Shown here: piece after piece, positions 19,440 through 31,829 of the stretch
Layout: every line of letters starts with the position of its first letter
Numbering within the stretch: the stretch's first letter is position 1
Notes under the pieces: model-generated
Told to the model about the DNA's origin: nothing
The model's database searches: none
What the model saw: the letters and a program-made list of their open reading frames with translations, nothing else
Source: Candidatus Micrarchaeota archaeon
GTDB lineage: Archaea; Micrarchaeota; Micrarchaeia; Micrarchaeales; CABMGC01
Length of the DNA: 64,000 nt
Assembly: GCA_021792095.1 (NCBI GenBank)
Contig: JAJYVH010000001.1
Coordinates: 677,155 to 741,154 of the forward strand
Reading direction: 5' to 3'
Translations under genes and position numbers: made by a program

Positions 19440-20924
19440 GGCCTGCATGCGCGCCGCATCGGCCAATTTCGTTATGCTCATACGTTTCAATATCAGTGAC
19501 ATCCTCCCACCCCTAAAGGGAGTGGGCTTCCTCCACATTTACATTTGTGGATGTTACTTGTGGAGTATGTTCTCGCTTCAGCGACCCGGCTTGCCCGTCC
19601 CTTGCGGAATGGGTGGAGGCCAGGTCTCCACGAGCGTGACTTCCGGCCTGCCCGGCCGTAGCTCTGTTGAGTATGTTTATAGCGGCGTTCACGTCCCTGT
19701 CTGCCACATAGCCGCAGGCGCAGGAGAACGTCCTGTCAGACAGCGACAGTGTGTTGAGCCTGCCGCACCGGCTGCATTCCTGCGACGTGTTCCTTGCGTC
19801 CACCGCTGTTACCGTCATGCCAGCCTCTTCCGCTTTGCATGATAGCGTGCTTATGAACCTGCCCCACGAGGCGCCCTGTATGGACCTCGCAAGCCTGTGG
19901 TTCTGAAGCATGTTCTGTATGTGCAGTCCCTCTACCGCGAACGAGGTATAGCCTGAGCCAATCAGGTCGTCTACTGCCTTGAAGACGAAGTCCTTGGCCC
20001 GGTTGTTGACCTGCTGCCATTTCCTTTCGAGTTGGCGTTTTGCCTTGTCTCTGCGATGAGAGCCCTTCTGCCTCCTGGCTGTAATCCTCTGCCACTTTGC
20101 GATGCGCCTCTCCGCCTTCCTTGCGAAGTCCGGCTTGGTTATCTTCCTGCCGTCAGAGAGGGCGGCGAAGGTCTCCAGGCCCATGTCGATGCCTACAGGA
20201 TTGGCGTCCCTGACCTTTTGCGGTTCAGTTCCGTTTACGGTTGAGAAGATTGCGTAGTATTGGCCTGCCTCCCTCTTTATCGTCAGTGTCTTGACGTTGC
20301 CCACGATTGGCCTGTGGAGCTCTATCCTCATGCCCCCTATCCTCGAGACGCGGAGCATATTGACGTCCTTCCTCTCCCTGTCCACGCTGAAGCCGAACTG
20401 GGGATAGGTTATCGAATTGTACCTGTCCTTTGCCCTGAAGCGGGGGAAGCCCGCCTTGACCCGCTTCCCTGCCCTCCTCTCCCTGACCCTGCGGAAGAAG
20501 TTCTGGTACGCCTTGATGAGGCGGAAGTACGCCTCCCTCTGGACCTGGGAGTAGAGCCCAGAGAGTTCCTTGTTCTCCGCCTTGGCCTCACGCAGGAAAC
20601 GGTTGAATGTTGAGGGTTTGATGGCAAGGCTCTTGGTTTTCCGGTATTCGTCCCTCGCCTTTTCGAGAAGTTTGTTGTAAAGAAGACGCGCTAGTTCTAC
20701 CTGCCCGTCCACCTCACTCTGGCGTTTTGCATCTGGATAGAGCCTGTATCGATAGGCTTTTGTAATGCCCACATAACCTACTGCGCCTTTCATATTATTA
20801 TCCTTTTTGTCGTTATATGCGGCCATTTCCATCTTCCTTTTCCGCCCTCGCTCCCATCCCACCGCTGAAGCATATGGGATTTCCCGCTCCGAAGAGTTAA
20901 ATACGTTACATAGCCACTAGTAGC
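19440..20924 (-). mobile_element. solo tnpB insertion element (IS1341-like, no tnpA)
   Basis: tnpB is flanked by subterminal hairpins at 20856-20880 (ATCCCA...TGGGAT) and 19506-19526 (CCCACTCCC-TTTA-GGGGTGGG, read on the minus strand). Both ends share a GGTGGGAnGG motif. The boundaries are approximate. Confidence 0.6.
19513..20793 (-). CDS. tnpB: TnpB (IS200/IS605-family OrfB; RuvC-type RNA-guided nuclease family)
   Basis: N-terminus YRYRLYPD. RuvC D/E/D residues are in VGIDMGLE, FAVEGL and DRDVNAAINI. The zinc finger is CSRCG...CACG. I prefer MKGAVGY (20793) as the start; the ORF track extends to 20862. Confidence 0.85.
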   Translation of the reverse strand: MKGAVGYVGITKAYRYRLYPDAKRQSEVDGQVELARLLYNKLLEKARDEYRKTKSLAIKPSTFNRFLREAKAENKELSGLYSQVQREAYFRLIKAYQNFFRRVRERRAGKRVKAGFPRFRAKDRYNSITYPQFGFSVDRERKDVNMLRVSRIGGMRIELHRPIVGNVKTLTIKREAGQYYAIFSTVNGTEPQKVRDANPVGIDMGLETFAALSDGRKITKPDFARKAERRIAKWQRITARRQKGSHRRDKAKRQLERKWQQVNNRAKDFVFKAVDDLIGSGYTSFAVEGLHIQNMLQNHRLARSIQGASWGRFISTLSCKAEEAGMTVTAVDARNTSQECSRCGRLNTLSLSDRTFSCACGYVADRDVNAAINILNRATAGQAGSHARGDLASTHSARDGQAGSLKREHTPQVTSTNVNVEEAHSL

Positions 20925-23488: not shown

Positions 23489-23947
23489 CTAGTTGCCTGC
23501 CAGCCTTTCCTGGATTCTCTTCAGCGATGCGGCGCTTGCGCGGGGGCCGAGCTGCGACGTCACATAGCCCGGGTACTTCTTGAAGAAAACGCTCTCCGCA
23601 GCCACTGCCGCCTTGAACTTGCCCCCGTCGTACCCGGAAGCGGGATAAAGCTTGGCGTGCAGGTGCTTGACCCCGGTCCCTTCCAGCACAAGGTGCACAC
23701 GCGACACCCCCAGCCTGCGCCGCATGATGTTCGCCACTTTCCTGACGGCCAGCATGAAATCCGTGAGTTCCCTGGGGCTCAGCGAGGAAAAGAGGCTGTT
23801 CATGTGCTTCTTAGGCACGAGCAGCACCTGGCCTGCGACGTTGGGGTAAAGGTCGAGGAACGCCACATATTTCTTATCCTCGTAGACCTTGTACGAGGGC
23901 GTTGCTCCGCTTGCGACCCTACAGAATATGCAGCTTCCTTTTGGCAT
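23489..23947 (-). CDS. HIT-family hydrolase (second copy)
   Basis: 152 aa with CIFCRV...GQVLLVPKKH and the triad-like VKHLHAKLYP. Confidence 0.75.
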   Translation of the reverse strand: MPKGSCIFCRVASGATPSYKVYEDKKYVAFLDLYPNVAGQVLLVPKKHMNSLFSSLSPRELTDFMLAVRKVANIMRRRLGVSRVHLVLEGTGVKHLHAKLYPASGYDGGKFKAAVAAESVFFKKYPGYVTSQLGPRASAASLKRIQERLAGN

Positions 23948-24007: not shown

Positions 24008-24053
24008 GTATATAAAGGTGCTACTGGCATAACCTAGTTTATAACAGGGTTAT
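24008..24053 (+). promoter_or_regulatory. TATA box plus inverted-repeat operator candidate upstream of the suf regulator/operon
   Basis: GTATATAAAGG lies at 24008-24018. The inverted repeat is ATAACC (24029-24034) ... GGTTAT (24048-24053). It sits where a TSS is expected, about 25 nt from the TATA box and 10-35 nt before the ATG at 24063. Confidence 0.45.
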
Positions 24054-24062
24054 AGTGAGCCT

Positions 24063-24434
24063 ATGGCGAGCAAGTACGAGGTTACTGCCGAGGAATATGT
24101 GCCGGCCGCGCGCTCCATAATAGCACACACGCTGATAGAGAAGTACCACATAAGCGAGGTCGAGGTGGCCAGGCGCATGGGCGTAGCGCAGGCTGCGGTC
24201 AGCAAGTACATGACAGGCAAGTACTCCGAGAGGCTGAAGCGCAAGATGGAGGAGCTCAACGAGAAGATAAAGGGCAACAAGCAGCTGTTCGATTCGTACA
24301 TAAAGAACGTCGCAAGCGGCAGCGACGAGCGCGCGAACATGTGCGTCTGCGCGCTCTGCGGCATGGCCAACGGTTTCTCGTGCTCGTTCTCCAGGGTGCC
24401 CGGCGTGAAGGCGGCGCAGGCTGGCGCCAAATAA
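24063..24434 (+). CDS. HTH transcriptional regulator with C-terminal Cys cluster (candidate Fe-S-sensing regulator of suf)
   Basis: 123 aa. The HTH is ISEVEVARRMGVAQAAVSKYMTGK. The C-terminal motif is C94-x-C96-x2-C99-x7-C107 (MCVCALCGMANGFSC). The gene ends 7 nt before sufB. Confidence 0.55.
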   Translation: MASKYEVTAEEYVPAARSIIAHTLIEKYHISEVEVARRMGVAQAAVSKYMTGKYSERLKRKMEELNEKIKGNKQLFDSYIKNVASGSDERANMCVCALCGMANGFSCSFSRVPGVKAAQAGAK

Positions 24435-24441
24435 TGATTGC

Positions 24442-25848
24442 ATGACGGCTGCGGAGAGCCTCGTGACCGAGGCGGATTACAAGGAGCGTTACGGCTTCGT
24501 GACCAATGCCGAATACGTAGAGTTCGAGAAGGGCCTGTCTGAGGACACGGTAAGGAGGATATCGAAGCTCAAAGGGGAGCCGGACTGGATGCTCGAGAAG
24601 AGGCTGCTCGGCTACAAGGTGTTCGCAGGCAAGCCTACGCCAAGGTGGGGCGCTGACCTGAGCGGCATAGACTACGACGACATATACTACTACAAGCAGC
24701 CGAAGGCGAAGGAGGGCAAGAGCTGGGAGGAGGTGCCAGAGGAGATAAAGAAGACGTTCGAGAAGCTCGGGGTGCCTGAGGCCGAGCGCAAGTTCTTCGC
24801 TGGCGCGGAGGCGCAGTTCGACTCCGGAGTGGTGTACTCGCACATCAACGAGGAGCTTGAGAAGCTCGGCGTCATATTCACCGACACAGACACTGCTGTG
24901 CGGAAGTACCCCGAGCTCATGAAAAAATATTTCGGCACAGTCATACCGCCTACCGACAACAAGTTCGCGGCGCTCAACACAGCGGTGTGGAGCGGCGGCA
25001 GCTTCATCTACGTGCCTAAGGGGGTCAGGGTGCCTATGCCGCTCAATGCATACTTCAGGATAAACGCGGAGAAATCTGGGCAGTTCGAGAGGACGCTCAT
25101 CGTTGTGGACGAAGGAGGGGAAGCGGTATACATAGAGGGCTGCACGGCCCCTGCATACTCGGCGAACTCCCTGCACGCGGCAGTGGTAGAGGTGGTTGCG
25201 CACAAGAACGCCAGGGTACAGTACGTCACAGTGCAGAACTGGGCGAAGAACATCTACAACCTGGTCACGCAGCGCGCGCACGTCTACGAGAACGCCCGCA
25301 TGTCGTGGGTCGATGCGAACATAGGCAGCAAGACAAACATGAAGTACCCTTCCATATACCTGCACGGGAGGAACGCGCAGGGCGAGATACTTTCGATAGC
25401 CCTCGCCTCCGATGGGCAGGTGCAGGATTCCGGGGGCAAGGTCTACCACCTCGCTCCCAACACAGCATCGAAGATAGTCTCCAAGAGCATATCGAAGGGG
25501 AGCGGCCTGACCACGTTCAGGGGCCTTGTGTACATAGGCAAGGAAGCGGAGAACGCCAAGGTGAACACCACGTGCGACGCCCTGCTGCTCGACAGCGATG
25601 CGAGGACCAACACCTACCCGTATGCTGACATACAGCGCAACGACGCGCTCCTGAGCCACGAGGCCAAGGTCGGCAGGATAAGCGAGGACGACGTGTTCTA
25701 TCTCATGTCGAGGGGCATATCGGAGAGCGACGCAATAGCGATGATAATACTTGGCTTCCTCAACGACCTGACCAAAGCGCTGCCCATGGAGTACTCGCTG
25801 GAGCTGAAGAGGCTGATAAAGCTCGACATGGCGGGTTCGGTGGGCTAG
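24442..25848 (+). CDS. sufB: Fe-S cluster assembly scaffold SufB
   Basis: 468 aa with typical SufB blocks: FERTLIVVDEGGEAVYIEGCTAP, NWAKNIYNLVTQRA, SHEAKVGRISEDDVFYLMSRGI. Confidence 0.9.
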   Translation: MTAAESLVTEADYKERYGFVTNAEYVEFEKGLSEDTVRRISKLKGEPDWMLEKRLLGYKVFAGKPTPRWGADLSGIDYDDIYYYKQPKAKEGKSWEEVPEEIKKTFEKLGVPEAERKFFAGAEAQFDSGVVYSHINEELEKLGVIFTDTDTAVRKYPELMKKYFGTVIPPTDNKFAALNTAVWSGGSFIYVPKGVRVPMPLNAYFRINAEKSGQFERTLIVVDEGGEAVYIEGCTAPAYSANSLHAAVVEVVAHKNARVQYVTVQNWAKNIYNLVTQRAHVYENARMSWVDANIGSKTNMKYPSIYLHGRNAQGEILSIALASDGQVQDSGGKVYHLAPNTASKIVSKSISKGSGLTTFRGLVYIGKEAENAKVNTTCDALLLDSDARTNTYPYADIQRNDALLSHEAKVGRISEDDVFYLMSRGISESDAIAMIILGFLNDLTKALPMEYSLELKRLIKLDMAGSVG

Positions 25849-25857
25849 GGTGATGGG

Positions 25858-27081
25858 TTGGGAGGCAACAACACCTTGGTGGAGCAGGCCATCGCTGGAT
25901 TCGCGAGGATGCCGTTCGACAAGGACGAACTCTACAAGCGGTACGGCAGCGAGATAAGCATGGAGGCTGCGAAGGGGGCTGGCGCTGTCGGCGCTCGGGA
26001 GGCGCTGAAGGCCGTTTCAGATTCCGCGGGGCTGAGGTTCGACCTCTACAGCGTAGGAAAAGAGGTGAAGACATCGAGCGGCATTGTGAGCGTGGAGCAG
26101 AACGCGGCCGCCGACTCCGCCTCCGCGAAAGGCGCAGCGTTCGAGGACAGACTCTATAGTTATATGCGGAGCGCGGGCTACAACATAATCAGGATCAAAG
26201 TGCCCGACAGCGCCTCTGCGAAACTGAACTTCCTGATGCTCAACGAGAACTCGGGAATGCAGAACGTGCTTCTCGCCGACGTGGGCGAGAACTCGAGCCT
26301 CGGGCTTTTCGAGTGGCTCGGGTCGGCGCAGGACGCCGTCTCGACGCATGCGGCCATAAACATAGTGAACGCGGGCGCAGGATCCAGCGTGGAACTGAGC
26401 ATACTGCACAACGAATCAGATTCCTGCGATGTGGGCGCGCTGAACAGCATAACAGCTTCGGACAACGCAACAGTGAAGGCAAGCACGATATACAACGGCG
26501 GCAGGAACACGAAGTCGAGCACCCTGGCCAGTGCCGAGGGACAGGGGAGCAGCATATCAGTCAACGAGATAGTGCTGGGCAACGGCTCGCAGTCCTTCGA
26601 CCTGGGCGCCTACACGCTCAACTCGGGCACGAGGACGAGCACGAAGCTGAGGAGCGGAGCGGTGCTCAACGACAGGGCGCTCTGCACCCTCAAGGGCTAC
26701 GCCAAGGTGGCGAGCGGGGCTGAGGGCGCCTACTCGTACGTGGAGGAGAGGGGCCTGGTCATGGGCAGCGGGGCGCGGATGAGACCGCTGCCAGACATGA
26801 GCATCGACTGCAGGAACGTCGCGTTCGCGTCACACAGCGCCTCGGCAGCGCCTATAGACGCGGAGAAGCTCTTCTACCTGATGAGCAGGGGCATAGACGA
26901 GGCGAGGGCAAAGCGCACGTTTGTCGCCGGCTTCCTGTCCAAGTACCTGGCGAACATAGCCAACGACACTGTGAAAGAGATAGCTATATCTGTGCTCCTT
27001 GACAAGCTTGATAACGGCAGGCATGCGACAGTGCCGCGGATAAGCCCGCAGAACCTGTGGATAGCGCCGGGCGCGGAGTGA
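25858..27081 (+). CDS. sufD: Fe-S cluster assembly protein SufD
   Basis: 407 aa, SufB/D beta-helix family, C-terminal block APIDAEKLFYLMSRGIDEARAKRTFVAGF. It lies between sufB and sufC and has a TTG start in the ORF track. Confidence 0.8.
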   Translation: MGGNNTLVEQAIAGFARMPFDKDELYKRYGSEISMEAAKGAGAVGAREALKAVSDSAGLRFDLYSVGKEVKTSSGIVSVEQNAAADSASAKGAAFEDRLYSYMRSAGYNIIRIKVPDSASAKLNFLMLNENSGMQNVLLADVGENSSLGLFEWLGSAQDAVSTHAAINIVNAGAGSSVELSILHNESDSCDVGALNSITASDNATVKASTIYNGGRNTKSSTLASAEGQGSSISVNEIVLGNGSQSFDLGAYTLNSGTRTSTKLRSGAVLNDRALCTLKGYAKVASGAEGAYSYVEERGLVMGSGARMRPLPDMSIDCRNVAFASHSASAAPIDAEKLFYLMSRGIDEARAKRTFVAGFLSKYLANIANDTVKEIAISVLLDKLDNGRHATVPRISPQNLWIAPGAE

Positions 27082-27085
27082 TGCT

Positions 27086-27808
27086 ATGAGGCTCGAGATA
27101 AAGGACCTGCATGTGGAAGTGGAAGGCAACGAAGTGGTGAAGGGGATAAGCCTGGCCATCAAGGAGGGCGAGTTCCACGTGCTCATGGGGCCGAACGGCT
27201 CGGGCAAGACGACGCTGTCGAGGACAATACTGGGGCACCCCGGAGCCAAGGTCACGAAGGGCGACATACTGGTCGACGGGGAGAGCATACTGAAGCTAAG
27301 CCCGGACAAGCGCGCAAAGCTAGGCCTCTTCCTCACTTTCCAGAACCCTGTCGAGATAGAGGGGCTCGGCCTTATGAACTTCCTCAACACAGCCAACGCC
27401 TCGCTGAAGGAAAAGGGCTCGTTCAAGGAGTTCATGACCGACGTGAAGGGTGCCGCGAAGGAGCTCGACCTGAAGGACGATCTCATGGGCCGATCCCTCA
27501 ACTACGGCTTCTCCGGCGGCGAGAAGAAGAAGGTGGAGGTGCTGCAGCTCAGGCTCCTCAAGCCCAGGATAGCGATACTCGACGAGCCGGATTCCGGGCT
27601 GGATGTTGACGCTGTGCGCGTTGTGGCCGAGAACATAAACAAGTTCAGGCAGGAAACGGGAGCGGGCGTGCTGCTTATAACGCACTACAGCCGCATACTG
27701 AGCTACATGCAGCCCCAGACAGTACACGTGATGGTGGACGGCAGGATAGTCGAGGAGGGGGGAAGGGAGCTGGTGGAGAGGATAGAGAAGGACGGCTACA
27801 AGTACTAG
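27086..27808 (+). CDS. sufC: Fe-S cluster assembly ATPase SufC
   Basis: Walker A GPNGSGKTT, signature FSGGEKKK, Walker B AILDEPDSGLD, H-loop ITHY. Confidence 0.9.
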   Translation: MRLEIKDLHVEVEGNEVVKGISLAIKEGEFHVLMGPNGSGKTTLSRTILGHPGAKVTKGDILVDGESILKLSPDKRAKLGLFLTFQNPVEIEGLGLMNFLNTANASLKEKGSFKEFMTDVKGAAKELDLKDDLMGRSLNYGFSGGEKKKVEVLQLRLLKPRIAILDEPDSGLDVDAVRVVAENINKFRQETGAGVLLITHYSRILSYMQPQTVHVMVDGRIVEEGGRELVERIEKDGYKY

Positions 27809-27816
27809 GCGCTGAC

Positions 27817-29058
27817 ATGGAGTTCGACGTGGACAGGATAAGGAAGGATTTCCCGATATTGGCTACGCAGATGAACGGCAGGCAGCTCGTCTACCTGGAC
27901 AGCGCGGCCACTTCGCAGAAGCCCAGGCAGGTGATAAACGCCGTGGCTAGGCACTACAGGAAGCTCAACGCAAACATACACCGCGGCATATACAAGCTCT
28001 CAGAGGAAGCCACGGCGGAGTACGTAGCGTCCAAGGAGGCCGTGGCCAGGTTCATACACGCGAAGAGCTACAGGAGCATCGTCTACTTCAGGAGCACGAC
28101 CGAGGCTATAAACGCCGTGGCTAGGGCCTGGGGCGACGCAAACACAGGCAGCGGGGACCGCGTGCTCATAACGGAAATGGAGCACCACAGCAACATAGTG
28201 CCGTGGCAGATGCTCGCGAAAAGGAAGGGGGCGCACCTGGACTACGTAGGGCTGAGGGACGGGAGCGAGCTCGACCTGGAGGACTACAAGAGCAAGCTTC
28301 TACTCAAACCGAAGATTGTGGCGGTCACGCACGTGTCCAATGTCCTCGGGACCATAAACGACGTCAAGGAGATCACCAGGATGGCGCACGAGGCGGGGGC
28401 CAGCGTGCTGGTAGACGGGGCGCAGTCCGTGCCGCACATGCCTGTCGACGTCTCTGGCATGGACGCAGACTTCGTGGCGTTCTCTGGCCACAAGATGCTC
28501 GGGCCGAGCGGGATAGGCGTGCTCTACGGGAAGGAGGACGTGCTTGAGGGCATGGAGCCATTCCACGGGGGCGGTGACATGATAAGGAGCGTGGACTTCC
28601 AGGAGTCCACATGGAACGAGCTGCCGTGGAAGTTCGAGGCTGGAACGCAGAACATGGAGGGCGCAGCGGGCCTTGCCGCCGCGGTCAGGTACCTGAAGAG
28701 GCTCGGCATGGAGAGCGTCAGGGAGCACGAGAAGAAAATCACGCTCTACGCGCTCGAGGCGCTCGCGGACGAACATGTCACAGCGTTCGGCCTCGGCAGG
28801 GACAGAATTGAGGAGCGCGCCGGAGTGATATCTTTCGATGTCAAGGGCGTGCACGCCCACGATGTGGCGCAGGTCTTCGACAGCGAGGGGATCGCCATAA
28901 GGTCGGGGCACCACTGCGCAATGCCGCTTGTCACCAGGGTGCTCGGCGAGCCTGCGGTGCCCAGGATGAGCTTCTACGTATACACCAAGGAGCAGGAGAT
29001 AGACAGCGCGATTGCAGCCATACGCAAGGCAAGGGAAGTGATGAAGCTCAGCTCCTGA
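27817..29058 (+). CDS. sufS: cysteine desulfurase SufS (class V aminotransferase)
   Basis: PLP-lysine block FSGHKMLGPSGIG and active-site Cys block RSGHHCAMP. Length is 413 aa. Confidence 0.9.
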   Translation: MEFDVDRIRKDFPILATQMNGRQLVYLDSAATSQKPRQVINAVARHYRKLNANIHRGIYKLSEEATAEYVASKEAVARFIHAKSYRSIVYFRSTTEAINAVARAWGDANTGSGDRVLITEMEHHSNIVPWQMLAKRKGAHLDYVGLRDGSELDLEDYKSKLLLKPKIVAVTHVSNVLGTINDVKEITRMAHEAGASVLVDGAQSVPHMPVDVSGMDADFVAFSGHKMLGPSGIGVLYGKEDVLEGMEPFHGGGDMIRSVDFQESTWNELPWKFEAGTQNMEGAAGLAAAVRYLKRLGMESVREHEKKITLYALEALADEHVTAFGLGRDRIEERAGVISFDVKGVHAHDVAQVFDSEGIAIRSGHHCAMPLVTRVLGEPAVPRMSFYVYTKEQEIDSAIAAIRKAREVMKLSS

Positions 29059-29992
29059 AGCGCCTGCCAGCCTCCCTGACCGCGAGCCAGTACGACGGGA
29101 TGGCTATCACCGCTATTACGGCCACCACCATGAAGAAGCCGAGGTCTAGCGTGCCCAGGCCGGTGAAGCTTATGCCAGTGCTTACCCCGTAATCGCCCAC
29201 CGCCGGAAGGAAGTAGAGCAACATGCCCACGGCCACGAAAGCGATGCCGCCGTAGGCCAGCACACGGCCGGAGGTCAGCCTGCCTATGAAGCTTATCTGC
29301 TCCTTGGTGTACCGCCTGTGCCTCAGCCAGTAGCCTATAGCAGCGCCGAAAAGCATCTGCATCACCATGGTGCCTATGCCGAAGAGCGCGCCGGGGAGCC
29401 ACGCGAGCGCAGCGCTGCCCATCTGCGGCGCTATCACCGTGTACAGCACGAGAGCGAAGGCGCCGAAGCCGAACCCTGCTATCGCGCCGTGCACAGGTGT
29501 GAGCATCAACGGCACCTTCCTGGGCTCTAGCACCGGGTGCGGGGCGAGCGCACCGTGCTCCAGCAGGTGCTCGCGCTCGAAGCCGGTCTTGCGCAGCACA
29601 CTGACGTGGTAGAAGCGCTCTATAGCGTTAGCGAGGCGGTGGTAGTGCAGGTAGATTCCTTTCCTCAGTATGTAGAAGCCAGACGCGCTCATGACTATGC
29701 CTACCACCACGTACACGAATGCGTTCACCTCCGGGTTCTGGAGGAACGGAGCGAGCGCCAGGTAGGAAAGCTCTGAGATGAAAGCGCGCTGCAGCGTGAA
29801 GCCGAGCGAGAAGAGCAGTCCTGCGGCCGCGCCCCCGGAGGCTGTGAAAGTCCCGAGCGCGTAGCTGAGCGTTATAGGCCACGTGTGCTCGTCCGGCGTG
29901 GCCCCGTGCACCAGGCCGAGAACGAACGACAGCAGCAGAAGGTACAAGATGCCGCCCGCGTACACCAGGAGCAGCCCAAAGGAAGGAAGCAT
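29048..29992 (-). CDS. polytopic membrane protein, possible metal transporter
   Basis: It has at least 8 hydrophobic helices, and LGLVHGATPDEHTW faintly recalls the H-x-x-x-P-x-x-H motifs of NicO-type transporters. I prefer the start at MLPSFG (29992) because the longer ORF collides with the ligase start region. Confidence 0.4.
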   Translation of the reverse strand: MLPSFGLLLVYAGGILYLLLLSFVLGLVHGATPDEHTWPITLSYALGTFTASGGAAAGLLFSLGFTLQRAFISELSYLALAPFLQNPEVNAFVYVVVGIVMSASGFYILRKGIYLHYHRLANAIERFYHVSVLRKTGFEREHLLEHGALAPHPVLEPRKVPLMLTPVHGAIAGFGFGAFALVLYTVIAPQMGSAALAWLPGALFGIGTMVMQMLFGAAIGYWLRHRRYTKEQISFIGRLTSGRVLAYGGIAFVAVGMLLYFLPAVGDYGVSTGISFTGLGTLDLGFFMVVAVIAVIAIPSYWLAVREAGRRFRS

Positions 29993-30035
29993 GCAGTCTT
30001 TTGCTACGGCAAGGATAAATAACTTGCCTGAAGAT

Positions 30036-31829
30036 ATGCTTGAGGGCATGCTTTTCGAGGAGCTTGCGGGTTTCTACGACAAGCTTGAGGGCACGAGCTC
30101 CAGGCTTGCCATGATAGACATACTCACCGAGATGTTCTCCAGGGCGAGGAAGGGCGAGGTAAAGGACATAATATACATGACGCTCGGCACGCCTGCGCCG
30201 CCGTTCAAGGGCATCGACCTGGGCATGGCCGAGAAGCTGGCCGAGGAAGCGATAGCCACGGCCACCGGCGAGACCAAAGAGGGCGTGGACAGGAGCTTCA
30301 AGAAAACAGGCGACCTGGGCAGAAGCGCTGAGCAGCTCATGGGCGCGGGCAGGCTGAGGCGCATGGGCAGCGGCAAGTTCGAGGTTAGCGACGTGATGGC
30401 CACGATGCTGAAAATAGCAGGCACCTCGGGCCAGGGCAGCAAGGAGGCCAAGATAAAGATGCTGGCCAACCTGCTCGCAGCCAGCAAGCCGCTCGAGGCG
30501 CGGTACATAGTGAGGTTCGCGCTCGGGGAGCTCAGGCTTGGGGCCGGAGACGCAACCATACTCGAGGCGCTGTCGAACGCGGCCACCGGAGACAGGAAGT
30601 TCAAGGCTAAGCTCGAGGAGGCATACAACATATGCAGCGACCTCGGCCTCGTTGGCGAGACTCTGATGCGCGAGGGCAAGAGGGGCATAGAGGAGTTCAA
30701 GGTCGCGCTCTTCGAGCCCATAAGGCCGGCGCTGGCCGAGAGGCTGCCCACCGCCGAGGAGATACTCGCGAGGATGGGCGGCAAGTGCGCGGTCGAGAGC
30801 AAGTACGACGGGCTGCGGGCGCAGGTGCACATCGACAGGGCCGGGAAACACGTCGAGATATTCTCAAGGAGGCTGGAGCGCGTCACCGACATGTTCCCGG
30901 AGCTCACCCGGGCGGCGCTCAGGGAGGTGCACGCTGACAGCGCCATACTCGACGGAGAGGCCATCGCCTACGACGAGGCTACGAACCAGTTCCATCCATT
31001 CCAGGAGACGATGCAGCGCAAGAGGAAGCACGGGATAGAGGAGAAGAGCGAGGAGCTGCCCCTGCGCCTCTTCGCGTTCGACCTGCTGTACCTCAACGGC
31101 GAGAGCTACCTCAATAAAGGATATACAGAGCGGCGCGATGAGCTCGAGCGCGTGGTCAAGGGAGACGGGACTATAAGGTTCTCTGACCGCACCATCGTCG
31201 ACAAACCAGCCGCGCTGGAGAAGTACTTCGACGAAGCCGTAGAGGACGGCCTGGAGGGGATAGTCGCCAAGGACCTGGATGCGCCGTACGTCGCAGGCGC
31301 CAGGAAGTTCAGCTGGATAAAGATGAAGAGGAGCTACAAGGGCGAGCTCTCCGACACGGTAGACCTCGTGGTAGTGGGTTACTACAGGGGCAAGGGCATA
31401 AGGACCGAGTTCGGCTTCGGCGGAATACTCGCCGCTGTCTACGACGACAAAAGGGACGTGTTCGAGACAGTGACCAGGATAGGCACGGGCTTCACCGAGG
31501 AGATGATGCGCTCGTTCAGGAGCGTGTTCGAGAAGATAAGGGTGGCGAAGAAGCCGGCGCGGGTCGACGCGCTGGTGGAGCCAGACTTCTGGACGGAGCC
31601 CAGGTACGTGGTCACAGTGAAGGCAGACGAGATAACCAAGTCGCCGATGCACACCGCGGGCAGGCACAGGGAGGGCGAAGGCGAGGTGGGCTACGCCCTG
31701 CGGTTCCCGAGGATCGTGGGCGGAGGGATAAGGGAGGACAAGAGCCCGGAGGACGCCACCACGGCCAAGGAGATAGAGGAGATGTTCAGGCAGCAGAGGA
31801 AGACAAAGATCAGCGAGGCCGCGCCCTAG
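30036..31829 (+). CDS. lig: ATP-dependent DNA ligase
   Basis: The adenylation motif I is ESKYDGLR. Other blocks are LDGEAIAYD, LEGIVAKD and FSWIKMKRSY. The ORF extends to 29883, but ATAAATAA at 30014-30021 favours a start at ATG 30036 or 30048. Confidence 0.9.
   Translation: MLEGMLFEELAGFYDKLEGTSSRLAMIDILTEMFSRARKGEVKDIIYMTLGTPAPPFKGIDLGMAEKLAEEAIATATGETKEGVDRSFKKTGDLGRSAEQLMGAGRLRRMGSGKFEVSDVMATMLKIAGTSGQGSKEAKIKMLANLLAASKPLEARYIVRFALGELRLGAGDATILEALSNAATGDRKFKAKLEEAYNICSDLGLVGETLMREGKRGIEEFKVALFEPIRPALAERLPTAEEILARMGGKCAVESKYDGLRAQVHIDRAGKHVEIFSRRLERVTDMFPELTRAALREVHADSAILDGEAIAYDEATNQFHPFQETMQRKRKHGIEEKSEELPLRLFAFDLLYLNGESYLNKGYTERRDELERVVKGDGTIRFSDRTIVDKPAALEKYFDEAVEDGLEGIVAKDLDAPYVAGARKFSWIKMKRSYKGELSDTVDLVVVGYYRGKGIRTEFGFGGILAAVYDDKRDVFETVTRIGTGFTEEMMRSFRSVFEKIRVAKKPARVDALVEPDFWTEPRYVVTVKADEITKSPMHTAGRHREGEGEVGYALRFPRIVGGGIREDKSPEDATTAKEIEEMFRQQRKTKISEAAP

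Follow-up and report, generated by a model that had tools for sequence, protein, structure and literature searches.

Introduction

How bacteria control the assembly of iron-sulfur (Fe-S) clusters is well understood, with IscR, SufR, Fur/RyhB and OxyR as the known regulators. The Rrf2 regulators IscR, NsrR and RsrR are dimeric helix-turn-helix (HTH) proteins in which three cysteines and one non-cysteine ligand hold a labile cluster; in NsrR and RsrR the partner subunit supplies the non-cysteine ligand with its N-terminus. FeoC, a small winged-helix protein with a role in Feo iron transport, binds an oxygen-sensitive [4Fe-4S] cluster in a cysteine-rich loop (roughly C-x4-C-x2-C-x5-8-C). Here we analyse a stretch of 64,000 nucleotides (nt) from Candidatus Micrarchaeota (DPANN), positions 677,155 to 741,154 of contig JAJYVH010000001.1, referred to below as the window. 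It carries the gene of a 123-amino-acid (aa) protein, a predicted transcriptional regulator, directly 5' of sufB, with a palindrome in the promoter. The genome is a single contig of 771,545 bp with 56% G+C. A sequence-only reading of this DNA had proposed that the protein is an autoregulated, Fe-S-sensing repressor of the suf operon, similar in logic to SufR and IscR but far smaller and of a different architecture.

In SufR of cyanobacteria and actinobacteria (e.g. Rv1460 of M. tuberculosis, PMC6034842), C-terminal cysteines bind a [4Fe-4S] cluster, and repression is exerted by the holo-form. The window protein resembles SufR in its place at the head of, or beside, suf and in its C-terminal cysteines; like SufR it is predicted to repress its own operon from a palindrome in the suf promoter. 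The SufR traits of being encoded with suf and of having a palindrome in the suf promoter are both borne out here, by gene linkage and by operator conservation. It differs from SufR in being about half the size, in having an HTH of XRE type where SufR has a winged helix, in its CxxCx7C spacing and in the archaeal promoter (TATA box and TATA-binding protein) on which it would act. A search of Pfam and NCBIfam with hmmscan (E <= 0.1) placed the window protein in no SufR-type or DeoR/ArsR family, so that it is not a SufR by sequence membership.

With IscR, NsrR and RsrR the protein would share the feedback logic of Fe-S homeostasis, the cluster and its fourth ligand being conjectural in the window protein. 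It has no match to the Rrf2 domain (PF02082) at E <= 0.1, and no Rrf2 structure is among the Foldseek or VIA-align rows listed for its model. FeoC and the window protein are both small HTH-type proteins with closely spaced cysteines; no homology between the two was detected, FeoC is not involved in suf control, and this likeness serves as a lead only. The difference from SufR and IscR that had been proposed held, there being no Rrf2 or SufR-type match and no whole-protein match among solved structures. To judge from sequence and model, it would be a SufR/IscR-like feedback repressor in function and a member of neither family by sequence and, as far as the structure matches listed show, by fold. 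A full-text literature search, of incomplete coverage, returned no description of an archaeal regulator of suf or Fe-S assembly, or of this protein.

A conserved operator in suf promoters

The elements of the locus are as follows (window positions).

24009-24016, + strand: TATA box TATATAAA of the regulator-suf promoter, read directly
24029-24034: left arm ATAACC of the N13 repeat, not conserved
24040-24054: operator palindrome TATAAC-AGG-GTTATA (core ATAAC-N3-GTTAT, 24041-24053), conserved in relatives
24063-24434, + strand: regulator gene, 123 aa, from the open reading frame (ORF) and homology
24342-24383, + strand: cysteine motif C94-x-C96-xx-C99-x7-C107 of the regulator, with C96, C99 and C107 invariant and C94 variable
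24442-25848, + strand: sufB (TIGR01980 of NCBIfam, E 2e-205)
25858-27081, + strand: sufD (SUFBD_core of Pfam, E 2e-41)
27086-27808, + strand: sufC, ABC ATPase (ABC_tran of Pfam; operon position conserved)
27817-29058, + strand: sufS, cysteine desulfurase (Aminotran_5 of Pfam, E 1e-136)

The 123-aa ORF lies exactly where the sequence-only reading had put it, and a TATA-like box was indeed found upstream. The operator described there, the inverted repeat ATAACC-N13-GGTTAT, is present at its given place and is not conserved. Among 169 fetched loci only the window's own copy was found, and in the two closest relatives the left arm is altered to CATAGCC and CATATTC; the N13 repeat was therefore rejected as the operator. 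Nested within it, and sharing its right arm (GGTTAT, 24048-24053), is the shorter, perfect palindrome TATAAC-N3-GTTATA, about 23 nt 3' of the TATA box and 8 nt 5' of the ATG. The ATAACC arm may be an extra half-site or may have arisen by chance.

Palindrome conservation upstream of related suf operons, which the earlier reading had put forward as a check, is found for this shorter element, across the taxonomic order. The core ATAAC-N3-GTTAT occurs within 160 nt 5' of the first gene in 49/49 operons of relatives, 46 exact and 3 with one mismatch. At species-representative loci it is exact in 70/72 and has one mismatch in 1, and the last carries an exact site that overlaps the ATG and falls outside the span searched. 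The two bases next to the core lay outside the search pattern and are conserved nonetheless, T(-1) in 95/95 and A(+13) in 94/95 distinct sites, so the real element is TATAAC-N3-GTTATA. It is often extended to TATAACT-N-AGTTATA. Flanks beyond T(-1) and A(+13) and the rest of the intergenic DNA are not conserved.

The layout of the promoter is also kept. Most orthologous promoters have a TATA-like AT-rich octamer 5' of the palindrome, commonly 11-22 nt away (a simple TATA pattern found no box at 29/95 sites), and a GGTG-like ribosome-binding site and the start codon within about 0-20 nt after it. The arrangement expected for promoter occlusion is seen in the window, where the operator follows the TATA box and overlaps the predicted transcription start, and the order is the same across orthologous promoters. 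A palindrome is kept between TATA box and start codon and is found together with the gene, in keeping with the autoregulated repressor that had been suggested.

Taken by itself, the window holds a single match with up to 1 mismatch, which is not significant (52/100 shuffles reach it), and the significance of the element therefore rests on the comparative data. The 771-kb genome has 3 copies of the core, where 0.3 are expected from base composition, and same-genus genomes have 0-5 copies compared with 0-1 for a reversed-pattern control.

Two other explanations of the palindrome were rejected. A role as an RNA hairpin does not agree with its absence from the minimum-energy fold (z = -0.05), with its invariant, non-covarying stems, or with one genome in which the site lies upstream of the TATA box. 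Nor is the palindrome the TATA box itself: there is a separate TATA-like box upstream, start codons follow within 0-20 nt in most loci, and the element is rare in each genome.

Variant arrangements were seen elsewhere. Tandem operators stand directly adjacent ahead of a ZIP-like transporter (L174, G030:C29:47663-47688) and 18 nt apart ahead of an AAA ATPase (L175, G034:C37:4722-4765); they may allow cooperative binding. In four same-genus genomes (L071, L072, L187 and L189) the core is found inside a longer G+C-rich hairpin (e.g. GGCATAAC-N3-GTTATGCC) beside an HMG-CoA-synthase-like gene, and this may be a different element that shares only the core.

Linkage to suf and natural controls

In the window the gene order is regulator-sufB-sufD-sufC-sufS. 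The regulator ends with TAA at 24432-24434, and after a 7-nt gap sufB begins with ATG at 24442. This spacing agrees with the earlier reading, and the sufB, sufD, sufC and sufS identities assigned there by eye were borne out with Pfam and NCBIfam; the score of SufD against TIGR01981 (NCBIfam), 150.6 bits, is below the cut-off of 222 bits. Homologues are almost always inside or beside suf, as a suf-linked regulator should be. In one family of the taxonomic order the regulator is directly 5' of sufB, and in another the arrangement is sufB-sufD-regulator-sufC-sufS. Among 80 species-representative loci (GTDB genomes), the regulator precedes sufB in 64 and lies between sufD and sufC in 8. A small clade (5 loci) has a monocistronic regulator away from suf. 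That the regulator is the first gene of the operon, as had been supposed, is correct for the window and for the first family but not for the second, where it lies between sufD and sufC.

Rearranged and reduced loci provided three natural controls. Where the order is sufB-sufD-regulator-sufC, the palindrome is before sufB and not before the regulator. In one genome with scattered suf genes (G028), the regulator, sufB, sufD-sufC and sufS each have a palindrome of their own. Four genomes (90-96% complete) have sufB and no detectable regulator, and in 0/4 of them is the palindrome present before sufB; three contain no exact copy at all, while in the fourth three copies, with G+C-rich spacers, stand at other places. 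The palindrome follows the promoter rather than the regulator gene. Taken as a whole, the three controls link the palindrome both to suf promoters and to the presence of the regulator. By these comparisons the gene and the operator form a real and specific pair that is conserved.

The regulator protein and its cysteines

The HTH lies at residues 30-53, the same stretch that had been picked out by eye. An AlphaFold2 model, built from an alignment of 45 suf-linked homologues, is confident and all-helical, with a predicted local distance difference test (pLDDT) score of 82 and a predicted template modelling (pTM) score of 0.77. Its helices span residues 4-28, 32-39 and 43-51 (the HTH pair, nt about 24150-24221), 56-71, 73-84 and 88-103. 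With VIA-align, residues 8-59 superpose on HTH DNA-binding domains of DeoR/SorC, LsrR and ParB/KorB types (Z 4.2-4.9, root-mean-square deviation 2.2-2.6 A). The wide VIA-align search gave nothing at Z >= 5, only matches to the HTH sub-domain and none to the whole protein, and Foldseek gave nothing at E <= 0.001 for the model against the PDB. A profile search of PDB sequences returned generic HTH similarity only, the best match being AdcR (E 8e-5 over ~65 residues).

Against the Pfam family HTH_3 (PF01381) the regulator scores 20 bits (E 7e-4), the cut-off being 23 bits. Two close homologues (P0003 and P0004) have a precomputed PF01381 match, and wider relatives score 23-31 bits. The NCBIfam scan of the regulator gave nothing meaningful, and HTH_3 is the only family in Pfam or NCBIfam found for it or for its wider relatives.

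The 45 homologues were picked by position at suf, and neither they nor the species-representative set were chosen with cysteines in mind. In the 45 homologues P14, Q43, K48, C96, C99 and C107 are invariant, and A36, A44, S47 and Y49 are nearly so. Residues Q43 to Y49 form the second helix of the HTH, which is expected to be the one for recognition. The cysteine motif C-x-C-x2-C-x7-C that was noticed first is present in the window protein, but C94 is a Cys in only 46/93 sequences and drops out of the conserved set, which is CxxCx7C with three cysteines. These three occur in 45/45 suf-linked homologues and the CxxCx7C motif in 72/72 species-representative suf-linked loci; cysteine conservation, on which the sensor proposal depended, therefore holds for three positions. 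At the N-terminus Tyr5 is conserved in 94% and Glu6 in 77% of the sequences (acidic in 83%).

Family and distribution

A word-indexed search found only 8 close relatives, and an exhaustive HMMER search found 249 representatives at E <= 1e-3. About 40% of the HMMER matches listed have CxxCx6-8C near the C-terminus. The remaining matches form a large archaeal family without a name, made up of XRE-type proteins of 100-135 aa; several of these exceed the HTH_3 cut-off. They are true homologues, with the same length and shared ..P-A-x-R.. and ..TQAAVSxY.. signatures, and are known from Methanobacteriota, Thermoplasmatota, Bathyarchaeia and others; their public names are merely 'predicted transcriptional regulator'. 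Look-alikes found with a language model come from Methanobacteriota, Thermoplasmatota, Nitrososphaerota, Bathyarchaeota and others. By its sequence relationships the regulator is a Cys-bearing branch of this uncharacterised archaeal XRE family.

The wider XRE (HTH_3) family has Cys5 and CxxC, whereas the branch of the window protein has Tyr5 and CxxCx7C. Among the archaeal relatives, position 5 is Cys with a CxxC-only C-terminus in 55 representatives and Tyr with CxxCx7C in 32, and both are found in 15; these counts come from related sequences and are not independent. The complementary variation of position 5 and the C-terminal motif suggests a single site of three or four ligands, to which both the N-terminus and this motif contribute.

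A homologue is present in 56/61 related genomes. The unpublished genome G050 is counted among these 61 in the presence and motif tallies, and no locus or specific claim depends on it. Most Micrarchaeota genomes have a second paralogue that lacks the cysteines and lies away from suf; in the window's genome it is at G000:C1:132518-132775 on the - strand (HTH_3, 23.3 bits), not beside suf. Regulator-sufB loci of this Micrarchaeota type were also seen in public metagenome-assembled genomes (MAGs) labelled Marsarchaeota or Saccharimonadales (L125, L129, L146 and L156), and these labels are probably due to mis-binning or mislabelling.

Candidate regulon

We inspected 40 further exact sites in relatives, chosen from among those listed: 20 because their spacer recurred or because they came from the same genus, and another 20 out of the remainder listed; the related genomes are not independent. 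The genes downstream include sufS, a DUF59/FeS_assembly_P protein (2 genomes), a 4Fe-4S ferredoxin (2), a radical SAM protein with an HMPTM-type zinc ribbon (3), a Taw1-type radical SAM protein, a SPASM radical SAM protein, a ZIP-like transporter (3 genomes; below the Pfam cut-off), Fe/Mn superoxide dismutase (SOD) (2), a secreted protein without known family (3) and a 108-aa protein (1). Judged by inspection and not by a statistical test, functions in Fe-S synthesis, Fe-S client enzymes, metal uptake and defence against oxidants are enriched in this list.

Apart from the suf promoter, the window's genome has exact operator copies at two places only, both outside the window (G000:C1:115262-116282 and G000:C1:143837-144177). 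One precedes a 329-aa secreted protein (motif YGTSSISL) and the other a 108-aa protein, both without a Pfam family. The operator is also found at orthologues of the secreted protein in three other genomes (G001, G004 and G007) and at the 108-aa orthologue in G001.

A scan of the whole genome with one mismatch allowed gave 16 matches, close to the number of roughly 10 estimated by hand from base composition, and a match was retained as a lead only where a TATA box stood in register with it. In this genome the gene of the HMPTM-type radical SAM protein has a one-mismatch site with the same order of TATA box, operator, Shine-Dalgarno sequence and ATG. A weaker site was read within the window, at a gene whose orthologues in two relatives carry the exact operator:

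2191-2493, - strand: gene of a DUF59/SufT-like Fe-S assembly protein (FeS_assembly_P, E 1e-18), candidate regulon member
2493-2507, - strand: operator-like site with a degenerate right arm, TATAAC-TTG-GTAGTA (2 mismatches, both in that arm), from reading of the sequence

A TATA-like ATTTATAC lies 7 nt before the degenerate site, and the end of the site falls on the ATG with which the DUF59 gene starts, which suggests that the transcript is leaderless.

Proposed mechanism and alternatives

The reading that we favour, and hold with slightly better than even confidence as a whole, is that a dimeric HTH protein represses suf and that its holo, Fe-S-loaded form binds the operator. Its parts differ in strength. 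The comparisons make the 123-aa protein very probably the transcription factor for this operator and, with good probability, a repressor. That the cysteine site is the sensor seems likely; that the ligand is an Fe-S cluster, which is argued from the content of the regulon and by analogy, has about an even chance. From the same comparisons we infer that the protein would be the founding example of a Micrarchaeota-specific transcription factor.

The protein would bind TATAAC-N3-GTTATA as a dimer through its XRE-type HTH; the half-site centres are 9 bp apart, and this spacing fits a symmetric HTH dimer. When the usual archaeal TATA-to-start distance is applied to the TATA box of the window, transcription of suf would begin at about 24039-24041, where the operator has its left edge. 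Because the operator overlies this presumed start, the bound protein would block recruitment of RNA polymerase to the suf promoter, and exclusion of RNA polymerase is a common mode of archaeal repressors. Repression would cover the whole transcript, i.e. the regulator together with sufB, sufD, sufC and sufS, and would thus be a negative autoregulation. The same operator would put a small regulon under control, comprising DUF59/SufT, ferredoxin, radical SAM proteins, the ZIP-like transporter, Fe/Mn SOD and two unknown proteins. The signal would most likely be read by C96-xx-C99-x7-C107, and a fourth, non-cysteine ligand may come from Tyr5-Glu6. With adequate supply an Fe-S cluster would occupy the site, and the holo-protein would bind DNA and repress; loss of the cluster, upon iron or sulfur shortage or exposure to oxidants, would free the protein from DNA and induce SUF. 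An Fe-S cluster is our best guess because there are three invariant cysteines at fixed spacing, because Fe-S assembly is at the centre of the regulon, and because SufR and Rrf2 regulators set the precedent.

Several points weigh against this proposal. The window protein itself falls below the HTH_3 cut-off. Three cysteines alone cannot fully ligate a cluster, and the fourth ligand is a guess, with Glu6 conserved in 77%. A CxxC(+C) arrangement would suit a redox switch of the thiol-disulfide or zinc-thiolate kind just as well, and the SOD gene would fit that reading too. In AT-rich relatives the genome-wide counts of the core are not above the reversed-pattern control, and the argument therefore rests on location, for which alone the counts are significant. 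At a few targets the operator is upstream of the TATA box or over it, and the sign of regulation may differ there. The regulon list was drawn from hand-chosen sites of a partial listing in related genomes, and some sites precede genes without an evident Fe-S link (Trp/Tyr-tRNA synthetase, Nre, an AAA ATPase and a glycosyltransferase).

The same regulator and operator could serve an oxidative-stress repressor whose cysteines act as a thiol-based redox switch, either by forming a CxxC disulfide or as a zinc-thiolate that releases Zn. CxxC is a classic redox motif, only three cysteines are invariant, the operator is found at Fe/Mn SOD in two genomes, and among the assembly systems SUF is the one that tolerates oxidants. 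We nevertheless consider a redox switch rather unlikely: a disulfide needs two cysteines, yet a third is invariant at the fixed x7 spacing; the third Cys swaps between the N- and C-terminus in relatives, as in a three-ligand metal or cluster site; and ferredoxin, several radical SAM proteins and DUF59 in the regulon are in better agreement with a system that matches the supply of clusters to the demand for them. An iron or zinc metalloregulator, with mononuclear Fe2+ or Zn2+ at the cysteine site, is improbable. Three cysteines and an O or N ligand would make a possible metal site, and the ZIP-like transporter carries the operator in three genomes, but the central target, common to all, is Fe-S assembly itself, together with Fe-S client proteins, and among the inspected sites typical uptake genes were not seen beyond the ZIP-like gene.

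We regard a purely structural role of the cysteines (e.g. with zinc), in which suf is repressed constitutively or in response to a partner or signal outside the protein's own sequence, as having an equally small likelihood. The sequence does not prove a labile cofactor, and Cys-less paralogues occur in the same genomes; it is the Cys-bearing subfamily, however, and not the Cys-less paralogue, that is tied to suf and the operator, and a repressor without a sensor would be unusual in such tight linkage to an Fe-S assembly operon. Finally, the palindrome could be read by some other factor, with the small protein travelling with the operon as a SUF accessory or carrier, given that its binding to DNA is a prediction and that in one family the gene sits inside the operon. 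This is very improbable in the face of an HTH fold with an invariant recognition helix, and of a palindrome that precedes the regulator gene even when this is monocistronic and far from suf and that is missing exactly where the regulator gene is missing.

Other features of the window and of suf loci

The regulator is preceded by an intergenic region of 115 bp, and beyond it by a divergent gene:

23489-23947: HIT-family gene, divergent, upstream of the regulator

Several Micrarchaeota have, after ~residue 234 of SufB, an in-frame insertion of some 350-400 codons that interrupts the match and looks like an intein (L024, L050, L051, L054, and G013:C8 with an 879-aa open frame); sufB of the window is without such an insertion. 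Convergent with sufS, at 29048-30049 on the - strand, is the gene of a 333-aa polytopic membrane protein. It has no Pfam match at E <= 0.1 and contains an H-G-A-T-P-D-E-H stretch that is reminiscent of metal-transporter motifs. A 449-aa ORF at 19513-20862 (- strand) has the appearance of a TnpB/IS605-OrfB-type protein, with a C-terminal CxxC...CxxC.

Implications

To our knowledge, almost no regulatory circuits have been described in uncultivated, genome-reduced DPANN archaea. The predicted regulon of this small protein connects cluster synthesis with cluster-consuming enzymes, metal uptake and superoxide defence. A protein of 123 aa and an operator of 15 bp, the latter defined at single-base resolution from roughly 120 natural promoter variants, make a compact test system, for which genomes without the regulator gene and genomes with scattered suf genes are natural controls at hand. 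Despite its uncultivated source the system could be tested wholly in vitro.

It is possible, though we would put it at somewhat below even, that the protein represents a new family of Fe-S cluster-sensing transcription factors, using CxxCx7C and an N-terminal residue, and the first archaeal regulator of Fe-S biogenesis, and that the wider Cys5 and CxxC family of methanogens, Thermoplasmatota, Bathyarchaeia and others senses cofactors with the same site. If the cysteine site holds a cluster, this would give a functional handle on a widespread, unnamed archaeal HTH family.

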